Origin: a virus
Taxonomy: Duplodnaviria > Heunggongvirae > Uroviricota > Caudoviricetes
Reading direction: 5' to 3' (one strand)
Virus record (IMG/VR): IMGVR_UViG_2571042862_000006
Location: 1 to 44,464 of that record
Length of the DNA: 44,464 nt
Part shown: piece by piece, positions 10,756-44,464 of the stretch
Position numbering within the stretch: the stretch's first letter is position 1
How the letters are laid out: each line of letters opens with the position of its first letter
Translations under genes and position numbers: made by a program
Notes under the pieces: model-generated
What the model was told of the DNA's origin: nothing
The model's input: only the letters and a program-made list of their open reading frames with translations
Databases searched by the model: none

Positions 10756-12173
10756 TACTCGATCCTTATCTGGCAGCCAGACAGAGTGACAGGTGACTTC
10801 GTGATAACGCGCAATTTGAAGCCGACATTTTTCCTGATTCGCCCGACACGCTTCCACAAAACGCGTTTGTCGTAAACGAACGGTTCATTCTGCTCAATCA
10901 TCTGCTCACGCCCGTAATTTATGCCGTCAGTGGTTGCAGATAGGAACAGGCGGTCGGCGTACTGCGCAACGCCAGTTGACGATTCAACCTCAAGGTCGAA
11001 GCATCTGGCGTTATCCGCTTTGAACAACGGAGTAAACAGCAGGTGTTCTTGCTGTAGCCCATACTGGCTGCTGATATCGAACTGCAATTTCCCGGTCACG
11101 GACTCCAGCTTATCGCCGCACGTTATCTGATTGCCTTCGTAAATGAAGTCAATGGCGCGGTACACATCGTCATACAGGCCTGTTTTCAGTACACACCATT
11201 GCGGACCATTGGCGCTTGAAGATGCGTCGTACACGAGGACGTGGCGCGGAAGGTGGATAATCAGCAACTCATGAGCATCAAACCGCAACGATTCCATCAC
11301 GCCATCAGCCAGTTCATCAGCAGTGTAGGAACGAAGGATTTTCTCAATGCTCGCGCTGGCGATTGGTGATACCTGACCGGAGCCGATGATGTATACAGAC
11401 GGCGCACCTGTTGCCGGATTGCTGATGAACGCATAAGAATCAGCGAATGGTGTTTTGCAGTAAGTCCCGGCAATACCTTTCTGCACCATCAGCGATGGCT
11501 GTGCGACATACAAAGCGGCACCAACTGTGGTTGCCCCCGTCAGGGAGAAATATTCAATCGTCGATGAGCCAAAGCAGACGATGAAGTCTCGCCATGTTCC
11601 GATGCCGATGATGCCGTCAGGCTGCGATTCTGCGCGATATTGTGCGCTGTAACGGTCAGGATGCGATTCGTCTTCAAGGTCAGTGATAAACCATGAATCA
11701 GTACCGTCTTTTGACCACGCATAACGCCCACGTAAACGCGTAATGTCGCGAACCGAACCTAACTCATACTGAGTGAATCCGCTGTCTGTAGGCCAGTTTG
11801 AGACTGTTTTAACCGTTCCATCATAGCGATACTCGACCAGTTGACCATTAACGCCTACCGCCTGAGATGTTCGACCATGCGCCATTGATACGCGACCACT
11901 TCCGGCAACATCACCGACCTCGCTTTCGCCCTTATACAACTTGCCACCGCAAACGCGATAAACAGCATTCTGCGCCATGTTGTACTCGACACCGCGCGAT
12001 ACACCATTCACATCAGAGCGTTTGGCAATGCCAGGGAATGAGCGAAGATATCCACTGCTGTTGAGGATTTCTTTGGGGGTTGCCAGCATATTCACTGGCA
12101 GATAGTCGATATAGTCGGCGTTTCGAAAGTCTTTGCCGACACCTTTCATAAGCGGAAGTTGCTGAATCGGCAT
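10755..12173 (-). CDS. Tail hub protein (P22 gp10-like)
   Basis: 472 aa, same length as P22 gp10, in the conserved gp4-gp10-gp26 order. Confidence 0.8.
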
Positions 12174-12650
12174 TATTCGCTCCCGTTATCGCAAGGTTCC
12201 TTTCGCTGGAAGTAATTCCAACCGTTCCACTTCGCCAACTGGTTACCACTACCAACAGGCATACGGTTTGGATAACCGGACTTACATTTAGCGGCTTTTG
12301 CTCTGTCCATTGCAGACAGTTTGACGAGTCTCTCTTTCCCGTATCTGGCAGTGGTTATAAGTTTTGCAGACGCTTCCAGCGCATAATCCGGAGCAATGCG
12401 GCAGGCAAGGTTGAAAATGACGGCATTGATAGCGTTATTTGATAAACCGTGCTCATCGCCCGGATCTGGAGCGACATCTGCATCAGCGAAAATGTAGCCA
12501 ACGTTGATACCAGGTGACACATCACCGCCAAGCCATTCAGCCATCATCATTTCAAGGTCGTTGACGCCGTCTTCCATAGACTGCGGTTCGACATCGGTTA
12601 ACGTGGCATTTGATGCCACACCGAGCTTACGTAATGCCGCAAGAACTAAA

Positions 12651-12673
<23 letters not shown>
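12173..12673 (-). CDS. Head completion / tail adaptor protein (P22 gp4-like)
   Basis: From [33 protein letters not shown] the sequence matches P22 gp4; start at 12673 has an AAGG upstream. The ORF-track N-terminal extension through the repeat (SQSQ...) is rejected. Confidence 0.8.
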
Positions 12674-12959
<286 letters not shown>

Positions 12960-24305: not shown

Positions 24306-24913
24306 GCGGCCTCACTTCTGCTATTTCGCAGGTCTTTGAGTTTCTGTTGGTACTCTGCCTTGATCGCCTTGCACTCTTCGATAGTCCAGCGATGGCGGTT
24401 ATGGTTTGATTCGATTTCGTCTACTGCTTCCTGCCCGATGCGATTAATCAGTTCGACGCGATACGGAACGAGATTTCCGCTTTTGTGCTGGTTGCACACC
24501 ACGCATTGCTTGTGAATATTGCGTTCATCAAATCGGAGTTGAGGTGCCGCAGCAGTTGTCCGGTAATGTCCGGCATCCCACTGAGCAGACGTGAGCGTTC
24601 CGCACGAGATACATGGTAAGTCGCGGTCTCTTTCTCTGATGAAGGCGTTTACGGCTTGTTGGGCTTGTTTAATCCAGTAACTGCGGGGCTTTAAGGCGAG
24701 TTTTCGAATCTTAAGTTTATCTTTCTGTTTCTGCTCCTCTCGTCGTCGTTTCTTCTCTGCTGCTTTTTCCGCTTTTTCGCGTTCTTTGCTTCGTCGTTCG
24801 AGTGCTATCTTGGTTCCACACTCTGGAGAGCACCACCACTGATTAGCGAATGCAGGGTGAAACCATTCCCGGCATTCATCGTTTTTACATCGTCTTCGCG
24901 CTGGTTTAGCCAT
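24302..24913 (-). CDS. ninG: NinG (Rap-like recombination endonuclease)
   Basis: 203 aa with the Cys-rich N-terminus typical of lambda NinG ([12 protein letters not shown]...CSPEC). Confidence 0.85.
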
Positions 24914-30164: not shown

Positions 30165-30812
30165 ATGAAAACGATGCATGAAATTATCGGGGAAAGGATA
30201 AAGTCCCTTAGAGAAGCTAAAGGACTTAGCCAGGCTCAATTGGCCAAGCTTTGCGGCTGGGCTGCGCCTTCACGCCTGGGGAACTACGAGTTAGGAACAA
30301 GAAAGGTTAGCGCGGATGACGCGCTGGTTCTTGGGGCGGCACTCGGCGTATCTCCGGCAAAAATAATGTTTGGCGAGGATTCAGACGCCGTATTTCGCCA
30401 ATATGAATACCCGTTATTTTCTTCAGTGCAGGCCGGGCCATTTTCGGAGGTGGGAAGCTACACAGCCAGCGATGCAAAGGCATGGGTCCCAACGACCACA
30501 AAAGCCAGCGAAAAAGCTTTCTGGCTTGAGGTGAAGGGGCATTCAATGACGGCGCCTCAGGGGGTTCGTCCAAGTTTTCCGGAAGGCATGCTGATACTCG
30601 TTGATCCGGCTGAGCCGGTAGAGTCTGGGGATTTCTGCGTGGCTTCTGCAAATGGTGATTCAGAGGCAACGTTCAAGAAGTATGAGAAGGATGCAGGGGT
30701 TAGTTACCTGGTACCTTTAAACCCGGCATATAGAACCCTGGATTGCGACCATAGCTGCCGCATCATAGGCAAGGTAGTTAAGGCGCAGTGGCCTGAAGAG
30801 ACGTTTGGCTGA
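30165..30812 (+). CDS. cI: CI-type repressor (HTH plus S24 LexA-like autopeptidase domain)
   Basis: C-terminal domain resembles the P22 C2 repressor ([13 protein letters not shown]...EGMLILVDP...ATFKKY); N-terminal HTH; true start may be the second ATG at 30174. Confidence 0.85.
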
Positions 30813-39552: not shown

Positions 39553-39608
39553 GGCGGTTTTTTATTGCCTGATTTGCAGGTTCGATTCCCTATTCGGAGA
39601 TAGCACTC

Positions 39609-39809
39609 ATGCAACACGAACTACAGCCTGATTCACTGGTTGATTTGAAATTCATCATGGCCGATACTGGCTTTGGTAAAACCTTCATCTATGACCGGAT
39701 TAAGTCCGGCGACCTTCCTAAAGCCAAAGTTATCCACGGACGAGCAAGATGGTTATATCGTGACCATTGTGAATTTAAAAATAAGCTCTTAAGCCGCGCC
39801 AATGGGTAA
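39609..39809 (+). CDS. torI: Excisionase / recombination directionality factor, TorI-type
   Basis: 66-aa winged-helix protein (...FIMADTGFGKTFIYDRIKSGDLPKAKVIHGRARWLYRD...) at the prophage right end; resemblance to KplE1 TorI is from memory. Confidence 0.75.
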   Translation: MQHELQPDSLVDLKFIMADTGFGKTFIYDRIKSGDLPKAKVIHGRARWLYRDHCEFKNKLLSRANG

Positions 39810-39881: not shown

Positions 39882-39897
39882 TCTGCAGGGGACACCA
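39882..39897. other. attR core: 16-bp copy of the 3' end of tRNA-Arg argW (CTGCAGGGGACACCAT)
   Basis: Exact match to the remembered argW 3' end / KplE1 att core, 70 bp after the excisionase and 165 bp before the second integrase. Confidence 0.6.
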
Positions 39898-40061
39898 TCC
39901 CGCTGTACACCAACGTCTACCATTGTCTATAAATCCCATGTAAACATATAAAAATAAAGAGATTTTATTCTCATGACGTCCATTTCCGTCTATTGAAATC
40001 AAGTAAATCTATGGGGCATAATTAGGGGCATTGCTGGTTCGATTGTATATGTGCCCCCAAC

Positions 40062-41348
40062 ATGTCCAGAAATACCCTCAACAAATTAACAGACCGTCAG
40101 TGCAAAGCAGCTAAGCCACGAGACAAAACTTATAAATTGTCTGATGGTGGTGGTCTTTATCTTGAAGTATCCCAGACCGGGTCGAAGTATTGGCGAATGA
40201 AGTATCGCCGCCCATCAGATAAGAAAGAAGACAGACTTGCTTTTGGTGTATATCCAACCATTAGCTTACAAGACGCCAGAGAAAAACGAGACAACGCCAA
40301 AAAGTTGTTAGTCAAGGGGATAGATCCCAAAGCAGAGCAAAGAGCAGCAAAAGCAGAAGAAAAAGGCGCATTCACTTTTGAGACAATAGGACGTCAATGG
40401 GTTGAAAGCCACCAGATGTGGAACGAAGACCACCGAAAACGCGTACTTAGAAGCCTTGAAATGTATATTTTCCCTCACATTGGCACTTCGGATATTCGCA
40501 AACTGGAGGCGATGACAATTTTACCTTTGTTTAAGAAGGTAGATGACGCCGGGAAACACGATACAGCCAACCGACTTAAACAACGAGTTAAGGACATCAT
40601 ACATAGCGCCCGTCTGAGCGGCATTAAGACAGAAATCATCACGAATGATCTCGATGTCCGGTTAATGCAATATGAAACTAAGCATCATGCCGCACTACAT
40701 CCCAGAGATTTACCAGACTTTTTCACTCGATTGGGCAGCTTTAAAGGTAATCCTCTTACCCGCCTTGCCATTGAGCTAACCATGTTGACATTTGTTCGTT
40801 CAAGCGAGTTAAGGTTTGCCCGTTGGAAAGAGTTTGACCTTGATCGGGCTGAGTGGATTATCCCTAAAAAAAGAGAGCCTATCGATGGTGTGAGGTTTTC
40901 CACCCGTGGCACAAAAACGGGAAAAGACGAACATATCGTGCTTCTTAGCCGTCAGGCTGTTTCTATTGTAAAGCAGTTGAGAGAACTAAGCGGAAGCTAC
41001 GATGTTGTGTTTCCGAATGAAAGAAACACCAAAGGCGTGATGAGTGAAAACACGGTAAACAAGGCATTACGCTTAATGGGCTATAACACGCAAGAGGACG
41101 TAACTGGACATGGATTCCGTGCCACAGCCTGTAGTTCCCTGATGGAGTCCGGTTTGTGGCAGGAGGACGCAGTAGAGCGCCAGATGAGCCACAAAGAATA
41201 TAAAGACGTTAAAAGAGCCTACAAGCACAAGGCTGATTACTTAGAAGAGCGCAAACTAATGCTTCAATGGTGGGCAGATTATCTGGACGCCAATCGAGAA
41301 ATACATATAAGCCCTTACGAGTTCGGAAGGAGAACACGCCGTGACTAA
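40062..41348 (+). CDS. Tyrosine integrase, P4-like family (second integrase)
   Basis: 428 aa; N-terminal arm-binding region (LTDRQCKAAKPRDKTYKLSDGGGLYLEV) and catalytic region (HGFRATACS...MLQWWADYLD); clearly distinct from the integrase at 1..1158. Confidence 0.9.
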   Translation: MSRNTLNKLTDRQCKAAKPRDKTYKLSDGGGLYLEVSQTGSKYWRMKYRRPSDKKEDRLAFGVYPTISLQDAREKRDNAKKLLVKGIDPKAEQRAAKAEEKGAFTFETIGRQWVESHQMWNEDHRKRVLRSLEMYIFPHIGTSDIRKLEAMTILPLFKKVDDAGKHDTANRLKQRVKDIIHSARLSGIKTEIITNDLDVRLMQYETKHHAALHPRDLPDFFTRLGSFKGNPLTRLAIELTMLTFVRSSELRFARWKEFDLDRAEWIIPKKREPIDGVRFSTRGTKTGKDEHIVLLSRQAVSIVKQLRELSGSYDVVFPNERNTKGVMSENTVNKALRLMGYNTQEDVTGHGFRATACSSLMESGLWQEDAVERQMSHKEYKDVKRAYKHKADYLEERKLMLQWWADYLDANREIHISPYEFGRRTRRD

Positions 41349-41349
41349 G

Positions 41350-42096
41350 ATGACAGGACTAGATGCGTTTTATAACGAGTCAGAAGATAAAATCTGGTTT
41401 GGTAATCTGATCAGCGAACTGGCAAGACTAAACAATGAAAATGAAAGAATGATCGCTGCCGCTATCTTAAGTAACTACAGATTGAGCAAAGCTAAACCAG
41501 ATACTTTAGGGGGGCTGGGCTTTTATCAGTTCGATTGGGTATCAGGTTTTACAACTAATGACGACTTTGAAAAGCAGTGTGTGGAGTTTTTAGGTCTTCT
41601 GGCTATGGGGCATGAATACAGGGAGAGCCCGATACCGGGGGAAGAAGGGACTTTCAACGTTAGGAAAGGGGAAGACTTTTTATATCACGATGATGAGGAT
41701 GATTGGTATGGGTCTTACGATTCGTTTTATTTCAAGCGCTCCGAGGTTGTGAACTTCTTCCCAGAACTGGATATGAATGTTCCAGATAACGAACCAGAAA
41801 TTGGAGCACTGTCAAAAAAAGTAGAAAGAGAACAAAACTGGAGAGGAAAAGATACGGCTTTAAAGATGATCGCCGGAATGGCGATTGCCTTATTTGAATC
41901 AAGCAAAGATTTCCATAGTGGAGGAAACCTTAGTATCAATAGGGTTAGTGCCCAAGTAATAGAAAACAACATAATATTCGGGAACGATGAAGACAGCGAT
42001 ACCCACCCAGATACATTTCGGAGATTGCTAACGAACGCTTTGGATAAGTACGCCCCCAAATTTAAGAAAAAAGCAACCAAAAAGCGTCCAAAATAA
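41350..42096 (+). CDS. Hypothetical acidic protein in AT-rich DNA
   Basis: About 249-aa ORF beginning immediately after the integrase stop; no family recognised. Confidence 0.5.
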   Translation: MTGLDAFYNESEDKIWFGNLISELARLNNENERMIAAAILSNYRLSKAKPDTLGGLGFYQFDWVSGFTTNDDFEKQCVEFLGLLAMGHEYRESPIPGEEGTFNVRKGEDFLYHDDEDDWYGSYDSFYFKRSEVVNFFPELDMNVPDNEPEIGALSKKVEREQNWRGKDTALKMIAGMAIALFESSKDFHSGGNLSINRVSAQVIENNIIFGNDEDSDTHPDTFRRLLTNALDKYAPKFKKKATKKRPK

Positions 42097-42252
42097 AGGA
42101 AGGATGTTCCCAAATTGTGCGTTAGAACTAAAAAATAACGCCCAATTTGGGGTAATTCTATTCCCAAAAATTTTTTCTCCAAATTCACAGAAAACTTAAA
42201 AAAACAATGATTTACTATCTCACATAGTCAAGCAACGTATTACGAGGTAGAT

Positions 42253-42444
42253 ATGAAAAAGTCGCTGATTCGGCTATCTGAGGTTTTGAAACGCACTGGC
42301 TATAGCAAGGCGTGGGTATATGCTCTGATGAGCCGAGGACAATTCCCCCAATCAGTCAAGATTGGTGCTCGCGCAATAGCTTTTATTGAAAGCGAGATCG
42401 ATGACTGGATCGATCAACGTATAGCCGAATCGCGTAGTAACTAA
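42253..42444 (+). CDS. alpA: AlpA-family transcriptional regulator
   Basis: 63-aa HTH protein (LIRLSEVLKRTGYSKAWVYALMSRGQFPQSVKIGARAIAFIESEIDDWI) matching the AlpA consensus. Confidence 0.75.
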   Translation: MKKSLIRLSEVLKRTGYSKAWVYALMSRGQFPQSVKIGARAIAFIESEIDDWIDQRIAESRSN

Positions 42445-42492
42445 AGAACAGAAACAAACAGGATACAAACAATACGTTATTAGGTATTAAGA

Positions 42493-42684
42493 ATGCAGTT
42501 GAAACCTACCAATCAAAAGCTGAACGTAACCCATGTTGATTTTGAAACCTTCGCGGCACTGATTAGATCAGAGCCACAAAAGGTGAGCACCAGCACCTGG
42601 GTTTATGATGTGAAATCCACCAGCGGTGGAAAAGCTATCGGCATTGCCTCTGGCGATGATTACTTAGTAATAGATCTGATTTAA
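42493..42684 (+). CDS. Hypothetical protein, 63 aa
   Basis: ORF only. Confidence 0.35.
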   Translation: MQLKPTNQKLNVTHVDFETFAALIRSEPQKVSTSTWVYDVKSTSGGKAIGIASGDDYLVIDLI

Positions 42685-42765
42685 TCGCACAAAAATTGTA
42701 GAGTAATTTGGGGAGACAGGAAGTCTCCTCCATATTACATTTTGGTACAACAGTAAGGGAATAAA

Positions 42766-42960
42766 ATGATTAATTACCTGACCGCTAAAGACGCAGCAGA
42801 ATATCTTGGCGTCTGTCTGTCACGCTTCTATCAGTTAAAGCGATATATCCGAAGCTTTCCTCCCTATATAAATCAGACCATCAATGGACGCAAGCGCCGG
42901 GTGTGGCTTGCCTCCAGCCTTGATCAATTTGCCGACAGATTTCTGGGGGGACGAAAATGA
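42766..42960 (+). CDS. Small HTH DNA-binding protein
   Basis: LTAKDAAEYLGVCLSRFYQLKR resembles an HTH_17/excisionase-type helix-turn-helix. Confidence 0.5.
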   Translation: MINYLTAKDAAEYLGVCLSRFYQLKRYIRSFPPYINQTINGRKRRVWLASSLDQFADRFLGGRK

Positions 42961-43343
42961 GCACTCTTACACGCTCTCAGGTCGCCGCGAATATACGCGA
43001 TATCCTACTAAGTGGCAGGAAGCTTACCCCAAAAGAGTTTGACGACATATTAAGGAAAGCCGGAAATCACGAACGTAGTCGCGTTTTAACGCTGTTACGC
43101 AACGATTGGGGAATTCCTGTTGAGCAGTTTAAAACAGAGGCGTATCACGTCACAGAACGCAATTTAGAAGCATACCACAGCGATAAAGACGAAACATTGA
43201 AGATCTGGAGGACGAACGCCAGATATGTAAAGACATTGCGTAAGGTAAACATAACGTTGTCGTTGTTGCGTGGGCTGGTGGGTAAAGTGCCTGAAGACAC
43301 GCTTAGAACTGTTTACAAGGGTATTGAAACCAAATACCTGTGA
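42957..43343 (+). CDS. Hypothetical protein, 128 aa
   Basis: ORF with ATGA overlap to the upstream gene. Confidence 0.45.
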   Translation: MSTLTRSQVAANIRDILLSGRKLTPKEFDDILRKAGNHERSRVLTLLRNDWGIPVEQFKTEAYHVTERNLEAYHSDKDETLKIWRTNARYVKTLRKVNITLSLLRGLVGKVPEDTLRTVYKGIETKYL

Positions 43344-43411
43344 TTGACAAAGCAGAAAGCCGACTTTGCGAGAGTCGGCTTTGAAGCAATTGAAATATAT
43401 GAACTTTACAC

Positions 43412-44464
43412 ATGGAATTATACGATAAAGACGCGAGTCTATCCACAAAATCACAAGCCGTAATCAATCACATCAATGGTCGCACATTAGCTTATGTGAG
43501 ATCAGTTACGCACAAACGTAATGAATTAAAGGCGGAGAATAAACGCCAATCATCAAAGGCTAACCACTGCATACCACCAGCTTGGACAAAGAAGAAATGG
43601 CGTACAATGAGGCGAGCTTTGTTTACTCTGGATGTCGAATCAACTAGTGGTATCCCCTACTCCTTTACCTTCAGACCCGTTAAGGGAACAACGCCAGAGA
43701 AATTCAACAAAGCGTTAAAGGCACTTACCAGATGGTTGACTTCGAAAGGCAATCAGTGGGTTTACGTCATGGAGTGGGCTCAACACCAGTCAGAGCCGCA
43801 TGTACACGCAATAATTATGGTGAACGAAAGAAGCATTAATGGGCAAGCAGGCAAAATTGTCAGCAAATGGGTAACACTGGCAAACAATGCAATCCCATCA
43901 AATGTTCCTCCCCAGTGGGATCTAGATTTGAAAGGTCAGCAATATTCAGAGCCTACAAGGTGTATAGGTAAACAGATTGATTACATGGCAAAACCCGAAA
44001 CTAAGTTAAATGACTTTAATAGAGAGGCGAGCAAGAGCCTATATGATTGGTCAGATGCCAACGTTTGGGGTTATTCGAATGGCTGGGCGCGGCATGAGAT
44101 AAAAAAAGAAACACTTTCTATCACTGGCTTTCATGCTGTAAGACGCATACTAAAAGCCATTCAGGCATCAAGGAAAGACAACTACAAAGTTAAGCGACAG
44201 ATACAGCGTACATTGAAACGACAAGACATAAATCGCTCACCAATCACCCCGTTCCAAGCACCGTTAATTAGCAAACACGATTGGGATTTATCAGTGATAG
44301 CGGTCACCAAAGAGGCAGAGACAGAGCGCAGGGAGTTACTATCCTCACAGACAATAAACTCGAACAAAGTACAAACCCACCCGCTGTTAAGGATGTTAAG
44401 AAAAGCACGAGTGAGAGCATCCAGAGCCAGAAGAGAAAGCGGAGGTTATGACCATTACTACTAG
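43412..44464 (+). CDS. Candidate rolling-circle replication initiator (HUH endonuclease superfamily)
   Basis: HUH-like motif (EPHVHAIIMV) and downstream Tyr motif (IDYMAKPETK); basic C-terminal tail; ORF ends at the last base of the window. Confidence 0.5.
   Translation: MELYDKDASLSTKSQAVINHINGRTLAYVRSVTHKRNELKAENKRQSSKANHCIPPAWTKKKWRTMRRALFTLDVESTSGIPYSFTFRPVKGTTPEKFNKALKALTRWLTSKGNQWVYVMEWAQHQSEPHVHAIIMVNERSINGQAGKIVSKWVTLANNAIPSNVPPQWDLDLKGQQYSEPTRCIGKQIDYMAKPETKLNDFNREASKSLYDWSDANVWGYSNGWARHEIKKETLSITGFHAVRRILKAIQASRKDNYKVKRQIQRTLKRQDINRSPITPFQAPLISKHDWDLSVIAVTKEAETERRELLSSQTINSNKVQTHPLLRMLRKARVRASRARRESGGYDHYY

Follow-up and report, generated by a model that had tools for sequence, protein, structure and literature searches.

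The window analysed here, a stretch of 44,464 nucleotides that makes up IMG/VR virus record IMGVR_UViG_2571042862_000006, consists of a P22-like prophage integrated at the tRNA-Arg gene argW, followed by the left 4.6 kb of a separate island. The explanation that we favour, with moderate confidence, is that this argW island excises itself, replicates transiently by the rolling-circle mode, is independent of the prophage and carries variable defence-like cargo; it was probably present at argW before the prophage. Three modules would make up the element. The first, for integration, comprises int, orf251, alpA and orf63; the second, for replication and maintenance, would stem from small cryptic enterobacterial plasmids and comprises a helix-turn-helix (HTH) gene, orf128, rep, a conserved non-coding stretch that follows rep, and the gene of a serine resolvase; and the third is a variable slot for conflict- or defence-type cargo. 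The features of the island in the window are as follows.

39884-39897, plus strand: att core TGCAGGGGACACCA, extending to the 16-nt sequence CTGCAGGGGACACCAT at 39883-39898, which equals the 3' end of argW
40062..41348, plus strand: int, intact P4-type tyrosine integrase of 428 aa with Arm-DNA-bind_3, Phage_int_M and Phage_integrase domains
41341..42096, plus strand: orf251, 251 aa, no family match
42055..42151: group of four CCCAAWTT motifs lying upstream of alpA; a fifth copy, at 42705-42712, lies upstream of the HTH gene
42253..42444, plus strand: alpA, AlpA-family protein of 63 aa (PF05930, E 3.6e-18)
42493..42684, plus strand: orf63, a conserved small open reading frame (ORF) of 63 aa, no family match
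42766..42960, plus strand: HTH_17-like protein of 64 aa, opening the plasmid-type module (its 23.8 bits fall short of the Pfam cutoff of 27)
42957..43343, plus strand: orf128, 128 aa, second gene of the plasmid-type module, resembling a 126-aa plasmid protein
43356..43382: hairpin with a 10-bp stem between orf128 and rep (z -2.7 versus shuffled sequences)
43412..44464, plus strand: rep, HUH rolling-circle Rep of 350 aa (PF23343, REP_ORF2-G2P, 29.8 bits versus a cutoff of 27.8)

Replication module shared with small plasmids

All six ORFs that follow int (orf251, AlpA, orf63, HTH_17-like, orf128 and Rep) lie on the plus strand. The initial annotation, made from the letters alone, had named a co-directional AlpA regulator, small HTH genes and a candidate HUH Rep behind the integrase, and all three are recovered here, the first through PF05930, the second as a sub-threshold HTH_17-like match and the third through PF23343 together with its motifs. 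In an alignment of all detectable relatives, the Rep motifs are invariant: the FTLT-like motif I with T86, motif II (PHVH) with P129-H130-x-H132, and motif III with Y191-x-x-K194. The HUH nuclease fold is present and the catalytic tyrosine is situated C-terminal to the HUH motif, giving the topology of a Rep. A tyrosine C-terminal to HUH is the order of Rep proteins and not that of relaxases. Furthermore, the best structural matches are replication initiators and not relaxases, and a sequence search of Rep against the PDB returned nothing. The family is tiny, with 21 representative clusters among 1.8 billion proteins and 8 matches in a word-indexed search, and a contig scan of genomes found it in only 2 species representatives.

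In tblastn searches, distant homologues of Rep (24-29% identical) occur on plasmids that include circular Klebsiella plasmids of 5.3-5.7 kb, three of which (NZ_AP022186.1, NZ_CP073059.1 and NZ_CP103581.1) were compared with the island. Their gene string of HTH, a protein of about 126 aa, HUH Rep, an ori-like element of 18 nt and a serine resolvase is syntenic with that of the island. The island HTH protein shares 44% identity with its 68-aa counterpart on a 5.7-kb Klebsiella plasmid (E 2e-12), orf128 is 39% identical to the plasmid 126-aa protein (E 1e-30), Rep is 24% identical to the plasmid Rep (E 2e-21), and the serine resolvase is 45% identical to the plasmid serine recombinase (E 1e-57). 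Unlike the island, these small cryptic plasmids are extrachromosomal and contain no integrase, AlpA or att site, and protein identity between the two remains at 24-45%.

The non-coding parts of the module are also shared. The hairpin at 43356-43382 is kept in NZ_AP022186.1, the only plasmid compared for this feature, by two compensatory pair changes. On the minus strand, this hairpin is terminator-like and is preceded by a promoter-like site (43445->43417) overlapping the rep start, and an antisense RNA of about 60 nt against the rep leader may end at the hairpin, in the manner of copy control in rolling-circle plasmids. The 18-nt element CAAAGTCTTAGAAAAAAA, followed by GAAGGGC, is located on the rep strand downstream of rep. 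Every E. coli and E. albertii island has this element, as do the three plasmids, and the Klebsiella island has a diverged form of it; its retention alongside Rep proteins that are only 24-29% identical suggests that it is a cis-acting origin. Slightly beyond the end of the window, at 24729-24845 of the complete-genome locus L001, a GC-rich palindrome, GAGCGCATCGCGCTC, is situated approximately 40 nt before CAAAGTCTTAGAAAAAAA and GAAGGGC, and the same palindrome-then-CAAAGTCTTAGAAAAAAA arrangement recurs downstream of rep in the three plasmids; this region is a candidate double-strand origin. In the E. coli variants, a conserved Arg-rich ORF of 59 aa with a GTG start directly follows the rep stop (L001 24586-24765) and overlaps GC-rich AGCGCGG repeats.

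Based on the shared gene string and the shared non-coding features, the island looks like a small rolling-circle plasmid, made of a replicon and a multimer resolvase, fused to an int/alpA integration module. It thereby illustrates how the replicon of a tiny cryptic plasmid may become a chromosomal, tRNA-targeting element moving among E. coli, E. albertii, Klebsiella and Citrobacter.

Boundaries of the island at argW

The last codon of the window is the stop codon of Rep, and only 4.6 kb of the island are included; the remainder was inferred from complete genomes with an identical left part, since no complete genome contains the whole window exactly and the best match covers 94% of it. At least 17 complete E. 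coli genomes carry an island segment 100% identical to that of the window. In genomes with this identical left part, a second copy of the argW 3' end is situated at L001 30302-30324, 10.3 kb from the first, and the att core at L001 20003 recurs at 30311. The search for a far att repeat, set beforehand as a test, thus located a second argW 3'-end copy 10.3 kb downstream. Sixteen nucleotides of the core are common to argW and the prophage attL, and 15 nt (39883-39897) are common to the far repeat of the island. In island-only E. coli genomes, the direct repeat is 23 bp long, TTCGATTCCTGCAGGGGACACCA, and in Klebsiella 24 bp; in the tandem genome, where phage DNA forms the left flank of the left island repeat, that repeat is consequently reduced to 15 bp. 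The proposal that the att core serves simultaneously as attR of the prophage and attL of the island is therefore supported, by the far repeat, by the 23-bp repeats and by the four occupancy states of argW described below.

In strain 7/2 and ECE204, the Rep stop is followed by approximately 520 bp of conserved non-coding DNA and then by genes for proteins of 330 aa and 821 aa on the opposite strand, and the far end of the island is formed by a 58-aa gene and the serine resolvase gene. ECE204, the complete genome closest to the window, agrees with it in tandem layout and carries this remainder of the island. To the right of the far repeat lie a DUF4942 fragment, the csc sucrose genes and dsdX'/dsdA. 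Across variants, the total length of the island ranges from 8 to 10.3 kb.

The truncation at the Rep stop recurs elsewhere: of ten IMG/VR contigs carrying Rep, three (L012-L014, 41-47 kb) end at exactly this codon, like the window. Judged by their IMG genome-style contig names, these contigs are read as prophage predictions on bacterial genomes and not as virion DNA, and the cut probably reflects prophage calling. The prediction appears to overshoot attR and to absorb the left half of the island. Where prophage callers merge the island with the adjacent prophage, both prophage boundaries and gene content at argW are overstated.

Integration module

The second integrase ORF, at 40062-41348, starts 165 bp after position 39897 and encodes all three domains, in line with the earlier description of a second, different P4-family integrase at this distance from the core; with the prophage integrase IntS it shares only 32% identity. 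The island integrase is 96% identical in the Klebsiella and Citrobacter islands. AlpA, presumed to act as excisionase or activator, shows 100% identity with its counterparts in the islands of Klebsiella, Citrobacter and E. albertii.

Between int and alpA, the gene described as AT-rich and of unknown function corresponds to orf251. The second half of that description holds, as orf251 matches no family; its AT-richness had been overstated, since a GC content of 41.1% versus 43.2% for the island part makes it only mildly AT-rich. Among island variants, the N-terminal 143 aa of orf251 are invariant and the C-terminal approximately 105 aa are hypervariable with a retained WRG(K/R)(D/N)T motif, a pattern that suggests a specificity or sensor domain; the AF2 model, with a pLDDT of 39, was unusable. 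Searches of PADLOC, Pfam, PHROGs and NCBIfam gave no usable matches for orf251, orf63, orf128 or the 821-aa and 330-aa cargo proteins.

Five of the six CCCAAWTT motifs of the 44-kb window cluster upstream of alpA and the HTH gene, and their positions are conserved across the E. coli, E. albertii, Klebsiella and Citrobacter islands, making them candidate operator sites. A LexA-box scan of the island regulatory regions found no LexA box.

Distribution, selection and variable cargo

The same backbone is situated at yfdC-argW in K. pneumoniae, where the island measures 8.1 kb, in a Citrobacter species and in E. albertii. The backbone genes encode proteins of 428, 246/251, 63, 63, 64, 128 and 347/350 aa; all seven ORFs are full length, with dN/dS values of 0-0.5 that indicate purifying selection. 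Between the E. coli and Klebsiella copies, dS of Int is 0.16, a divergence far below that expected between core genes of E. coli and Klebsiella. The low dS of Int and the near-identity across genera point to recent movement of the backbone between genera, under selection. For Rep, in contrast, identity drops to about 50% in the Klebsiella and Citrobacter islands, a sign of module exchange.

The cargo between rep and the resolvase gene is different in every variant, as listed below.

Proteins of 821 and 330 aa, L001 25382-28836, minus strand, no match in PADLOC, Pfam, PHROGs or NCBIfam
GTPase-domain protein and a 152-aa protein
A 470-aa protein
HNH nuclease matching PADLOC PDC-M68A (8.6e-34) and a Polbeta-type nucleotidyltransferase
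PIN-TPR-GreABC protein of 1094 aa and HetE-N

Inspected by eye in translation, the 821-aa protein has a hydrophobic, membrane-like N-terminus. The 821-aa and 330-aa pair fills the slot occupied in relatives by HNH, PIN and GTPase genes of the conflict type, and is on this ground a candidate for an uncharacterised defence system; the slot as a whole is a cheap place to look for new anti-phage systems. No description of the element was found in the searchable literature, and an integrative island on a rare HUH-Rep small-plasmid backbone with a swappable defence-like cassette is regarded as moderately new.

Occupancy of argW and order of arrival

Comparative occupancy of argW, proposed earlier as a check on the tandem arrangement, was determined in 5,426 complete E. 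coli genomes. All four states occur. In the empty state, argW directly adjoins what lies to the right of the far repeat (H42-H58), and in the prophage-only state torI, the excisionase gene at the right end of the prophage, is joined to DUF4942 (H37). The island-only state, recognised by the argW-int junction, is found in 196 genomes, and the tandem state, recognised by the torI-core-int junction, in 36. In addition, approximately 1,370 further genomes carry a torI-type element at argW without the island. Such an element is present at argW in about 15% of island carriers versus about 26% of other genomes, and these counts, uncorrected for phylogeny, give no positive association between island and prophage at argW.

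Along the locus, the order is tRNA, prophage, island. Because each insertion regenerates an intact tRNA on its left, the order is most simply explained if the island arrived at argW first and the phage second. The tandem arrangement with its shared att core is confirmed and is ordinary biology: in tandem arrays of integrative elements at one tRNA gene, neighbours likewise share an att copy, the newest being placed beside the intact tRNA, the prophage here compares with KplE1/HK620/Sf6-type prophages at argW, and nothing in the present array is unusual. The argW-dsd region is called highly variable in the title of a paper quoted in PMC7545054 and PMC3032704.

A decayed relative exists in E. coli O157:H7 (L005, NZ_CP066756.1 1460157-1476782). 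In this composite, a prophage remnant made up of intS, ejection-protein genes and a truncated tail-needle gene is fused to the 3' half of rep from the island, with a different, 470-aa cargo gene and the resolvase gene; no island att repeat is left in it.

Proposed cycle of the island

In the proposed cycle, Int and AlpA would recombine the flanking argW 3'-end repeats, both of 23 bp, and release a circle, whose predicted attP sequence is TTTTCGATTCCTGCAGGGGACACCATCCCGC. Rep would then nick an origin downstream of rep to start rolling-circle replication, the resolvase would reduce multimers, and Int would reinsert the circle into argW of a new cell. As the vehicle between cells, rolling-circle concatemers within headful phage particles would rank first and conjugative mobilisation second. 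Island sizes were also considered as integer fractions of the P22 headful, an idea rejected as numerology. The tandem array would have formed by sequential integration, the P22-like phage entering the intact tRNA copy at the left end of the resident island and leaving a hybrid junction with 15 bp of the 23-bp island repeat.

Several points weigh against a self-excising, transiently replicating island. The attP junction was found neither in metagenome or viral contigs nor in any of the 5,426 complete E. coli genomes, in a search whose positive control, the integrated attL, was found in 10 metagenome contigs. The island is never on a plasmid, with 553 chromosomal places and 0 plasmid places. The shortening of the left repeat to 15 bp in the tandem copy could impair excision, and both the nick site and the origin are candidates only. 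Moreover, the co-orientation of int, alpA and rep and the size of the island also fit satellites, and the counts of 36 and 196 genomes come from phylogenetically non-independent genomes.

Comparison with phage satellites

A rather unlikely alternative is that the island is a phage satellite, of the kind of the phage-inducible chromosomal islands (PICIs), of P4 or of minimalist chromosomal islands inducible by phages (PICMIs), induced by the neighbouring P22-like prophage or by another helper and packaged into helper capsids. The initial annotation leaned in this direction, taking an integrase followed by alpA in one orientation as typical of PICIs and P4-like satellites and raising mobilisation by the adjacent prophage. 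The first part stands to the extent that the order does match the PICI layout; as a diagnostic sign it falls short, since the same order is also usual in islands that are not satellites (PMC9376610).

The layout resembles Gram-negative PICIs of the EcCICFT073 type (PMC6092414) in several respects: an integrase at the left end, a tRNA- or att-specific site and direct repeats, here the 23-bp argW repeats; alpA co-directional with int; a size of about 10 kb, or 8-10 kb among the variants; the absence of structural and lysis genes; and accessory or defence genes, the cargo of the island being defence-like as in satellites. A candidate for the AT-rich, repeat-flanked region that lies behind the replication gene in PICIs is an AT-rich stretch at L001 24886-24999, flanked by the motifs GTTGACGT and ACGTCAACGTAACGTCA and situated within the block of about 520 bp conserved among E. 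coli variants. The gene content, however, differs. PICIs have a pri-rep primase-helicase, whereas the island has a small HUH Rep and no primase or helicase domain in any ORF; terS, rpp and capsid-redirection genes are not recognised in the island; and the island has a serine resolvase at its far end and a replication module homologous to that of autonomous plasmids. Compared with P4-like satellites, the island shares only the P4-type integrase and an AlpA/Vis-like protein, and the alpha primase-helicase, sid/psu/delta and cnr/epsilon were not detected in it with PHROGs and Pfam.

Parallels are also offered by minimalist satellites, the PICMIs and the marine virion-encapsidated integrative mobile elements (VEIMEs), which have a minimal set of int, alpA and one replication gene, no packaging genes and defence cargo, which are packaged as concatemers by headful phages and for which rolling-circle-type replication has been proposed (PMC10803314, PMC9618062). 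PICMIs differ in having a primase, a fis-adjacent site, a Vibrionaceae host range and concatemers found in virions, whereas the present island lies at argW and has no primase. Two further points fit a satellite: the neighbour is a P22-like phage with morphogenesis genes 96% identical to those of isolated phages, and Kapi1, a related phage of argW, has been proven to serve a different PICI as helper, with documented AlpA/Xis cross-talk (PMC11773190).

A sharper form of this alternative, which we hold to be unlikely, is a minimalist enterobacterial satellite of a kind not recognised before, in which a plasmid-derived HUH Rep would replace the primase-helicase, concatemers would be packaged by headful P22-like phages without a packaging gene of the island itself, the hypervariable C-terminus of orf251 would be the specificity domain that senses the helper, and a defence cassette would be swappable. 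If true, the satellite reading would extend the minimalist-satellite concept to clinical Enterobacteriaceae.

The indirect tests of a phage link were all negative. No primase-helicase, terS, rpp/ppi, sid/psu/delta or capsid gene was recognised with Pfam, PHROGs and NCBIfam, with the limit that the remaining ORFs have no assigned family and very divergent functions are possible. Rep has no tblastn match in 50,697 phage records, and the IMG/VR contigs that do carry it are, from their names, read as prophage predictions on bacterial genomes. Neither an attP nor a concatemer junction was present in viral or metagenome contigs, repeats shared by island and prophage (possible pac mimicry) are at chance level only, and the LexA box is lacking. 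Furthermore, 196 of about 232 islands have no prophage between argW and the island, torI-type elements are less frequent among carriers than among other genomes, and the relatives of the replication module are autonomous plasmids. A satellite of the PICI or P4 type mobilised by its neighbour, as put forward at the outset, is not upheld, given the HUH Rep module common to plasmids, the lack of a recognised packaging gene, of a Rep in phage records and of an attP, and the predominance of islands without an adjacent prophage. Mobilisation of the island by the neighbouring prophage is unsupported, and phage mobilisation in general is unevidenced; the negatives on a phage link are weak, and a PICMI-like lifestyle is possible.

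Comparison with mobilisable elements and with an immobile remnant

Quite unlikely is the explanation that the island is an integrative mobilisable element (IME), in which the HUH protein would also work as a non-canonical relaxase and the excised circle would be transferred by a conjugative plasmid or integrative and conjugative element (ICE) present in the same cell. The general architecture is compatible with it. SGI1, GIsul2 and streptococcal IMEs combine a tyrosine integrase, an AlpA-type recombination directionality factor and a plasmid-derived replication module (PMC5704250, PMC9376610), and elements of the SGI1/GIsul2 type insert site-specifically into the 3' end of a conserved gene; GIsul2 carries resG, which we take to be a resolvase, and the island likewise has one. 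IMEs with replication genes, such as SGI1 and GIsul2, are thus known, and initiator-type proteins of rolling-circle replication act as relaxases in many IMEs and ICEs, blurring the distinction between Rep and relaxase (PMC5704250). A weak match to the Pfam Relaxase family (E 0.0055, below the cutoff) also points this way, and the spread between genera fits conjugation.

In contrast, the motif order of the island protein (HUH before Tyr) is that of a Rep and its best structural matches are initiators, and no coupling protein, canonical relaxase or recognisable origin of transfer (oriT) was found in the island. Proteobacterial IMEs employ theta-type initiators (Rep_3, RepA/RepC) together with transfer-related genes, whereas the island has an HUH Rep and no transfer gene. 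IMEs with rolling-circle initiators are known from Firmicutes, where the documented Rep-relaxases are associated with TcpA-type coupling proteins (PMC5704250), whereas the island Rep belongs to the tiny enterobacterial family. In addition, MOB-suite typing in PLSDB classed 13 of the 15 related plasmid records as non-mobilizable, including all three small ones, the other two being large and conjugative.

That this copy is a fixed, immobile remnant beside the prophage is very unlikely: the left repeat cut to 15 bp by the phage insertion, the failure to detect an excised form in complete E. coli genomes, metagenome and viral contigs, and the truly decayed relative in O157:H7 would fit it, but purifying selection acts on all seven backbone ORFs, none of which is truncated, island-only copies with both 23-bp repeats retained are 100% identical to the island part, site polymorphism and near-identity across genera show recent mobility of the family, and excision of the prophage would restore the full attL.

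Neighbouring P22-like prophage

Two genes mark the ends of the prophage and lie outside the island.

1..1158, plus strand: intS, prophage integrase, neighbouring an intact argW just outside the window
39609..39809, plus strand: torI, KplE1/HK620-type prophage excisionase, marking the right end of the prophage

In a complete genome with the same arrangement, the intact argW is situated 161 bp upstream of intS. The early region of the prophage is on the plus strand, whereas the minus strand carries the morphogenesis genes, which share 96% identity with those of isolated P22-like phages, e.g., IME10 and APC_JM3.2. With intS at attL, torI at attR, the 16-nt argW core and P22-like morphogenesis genes, the neighbour is an argW prophage of the KplE1/HK620 type.

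At 39572-39589, the sequence ATTTGCAGGTTCGATTCC matches, in 17 of 18 nt, the T-arm segment of argW that directly precedes the att core in the tRNA. This copy is situated approximately 290 bp upstream of the att core (39884-39897), with torI in between. Given this T-arm match, the core and the intervening torI, the right end of the prophage looks like a copy of the argW 3' end of about 30 nt, split by a torI-containing insert.

Further inside the prophage, a run of about 17 units of the hexanucleotide TCTGGC extends over 12697-12838 in the ORF at 12173-12823 (minus strand), where it would encode a dipeptide repeat. Meanwhile, the only tRNA call of ARAGORN in the window, an 83-nt tRNA-Ala(cgc) at 30363-30445, falls inside a repressor-like ORF at 30165-30812 and is probably a false positive.

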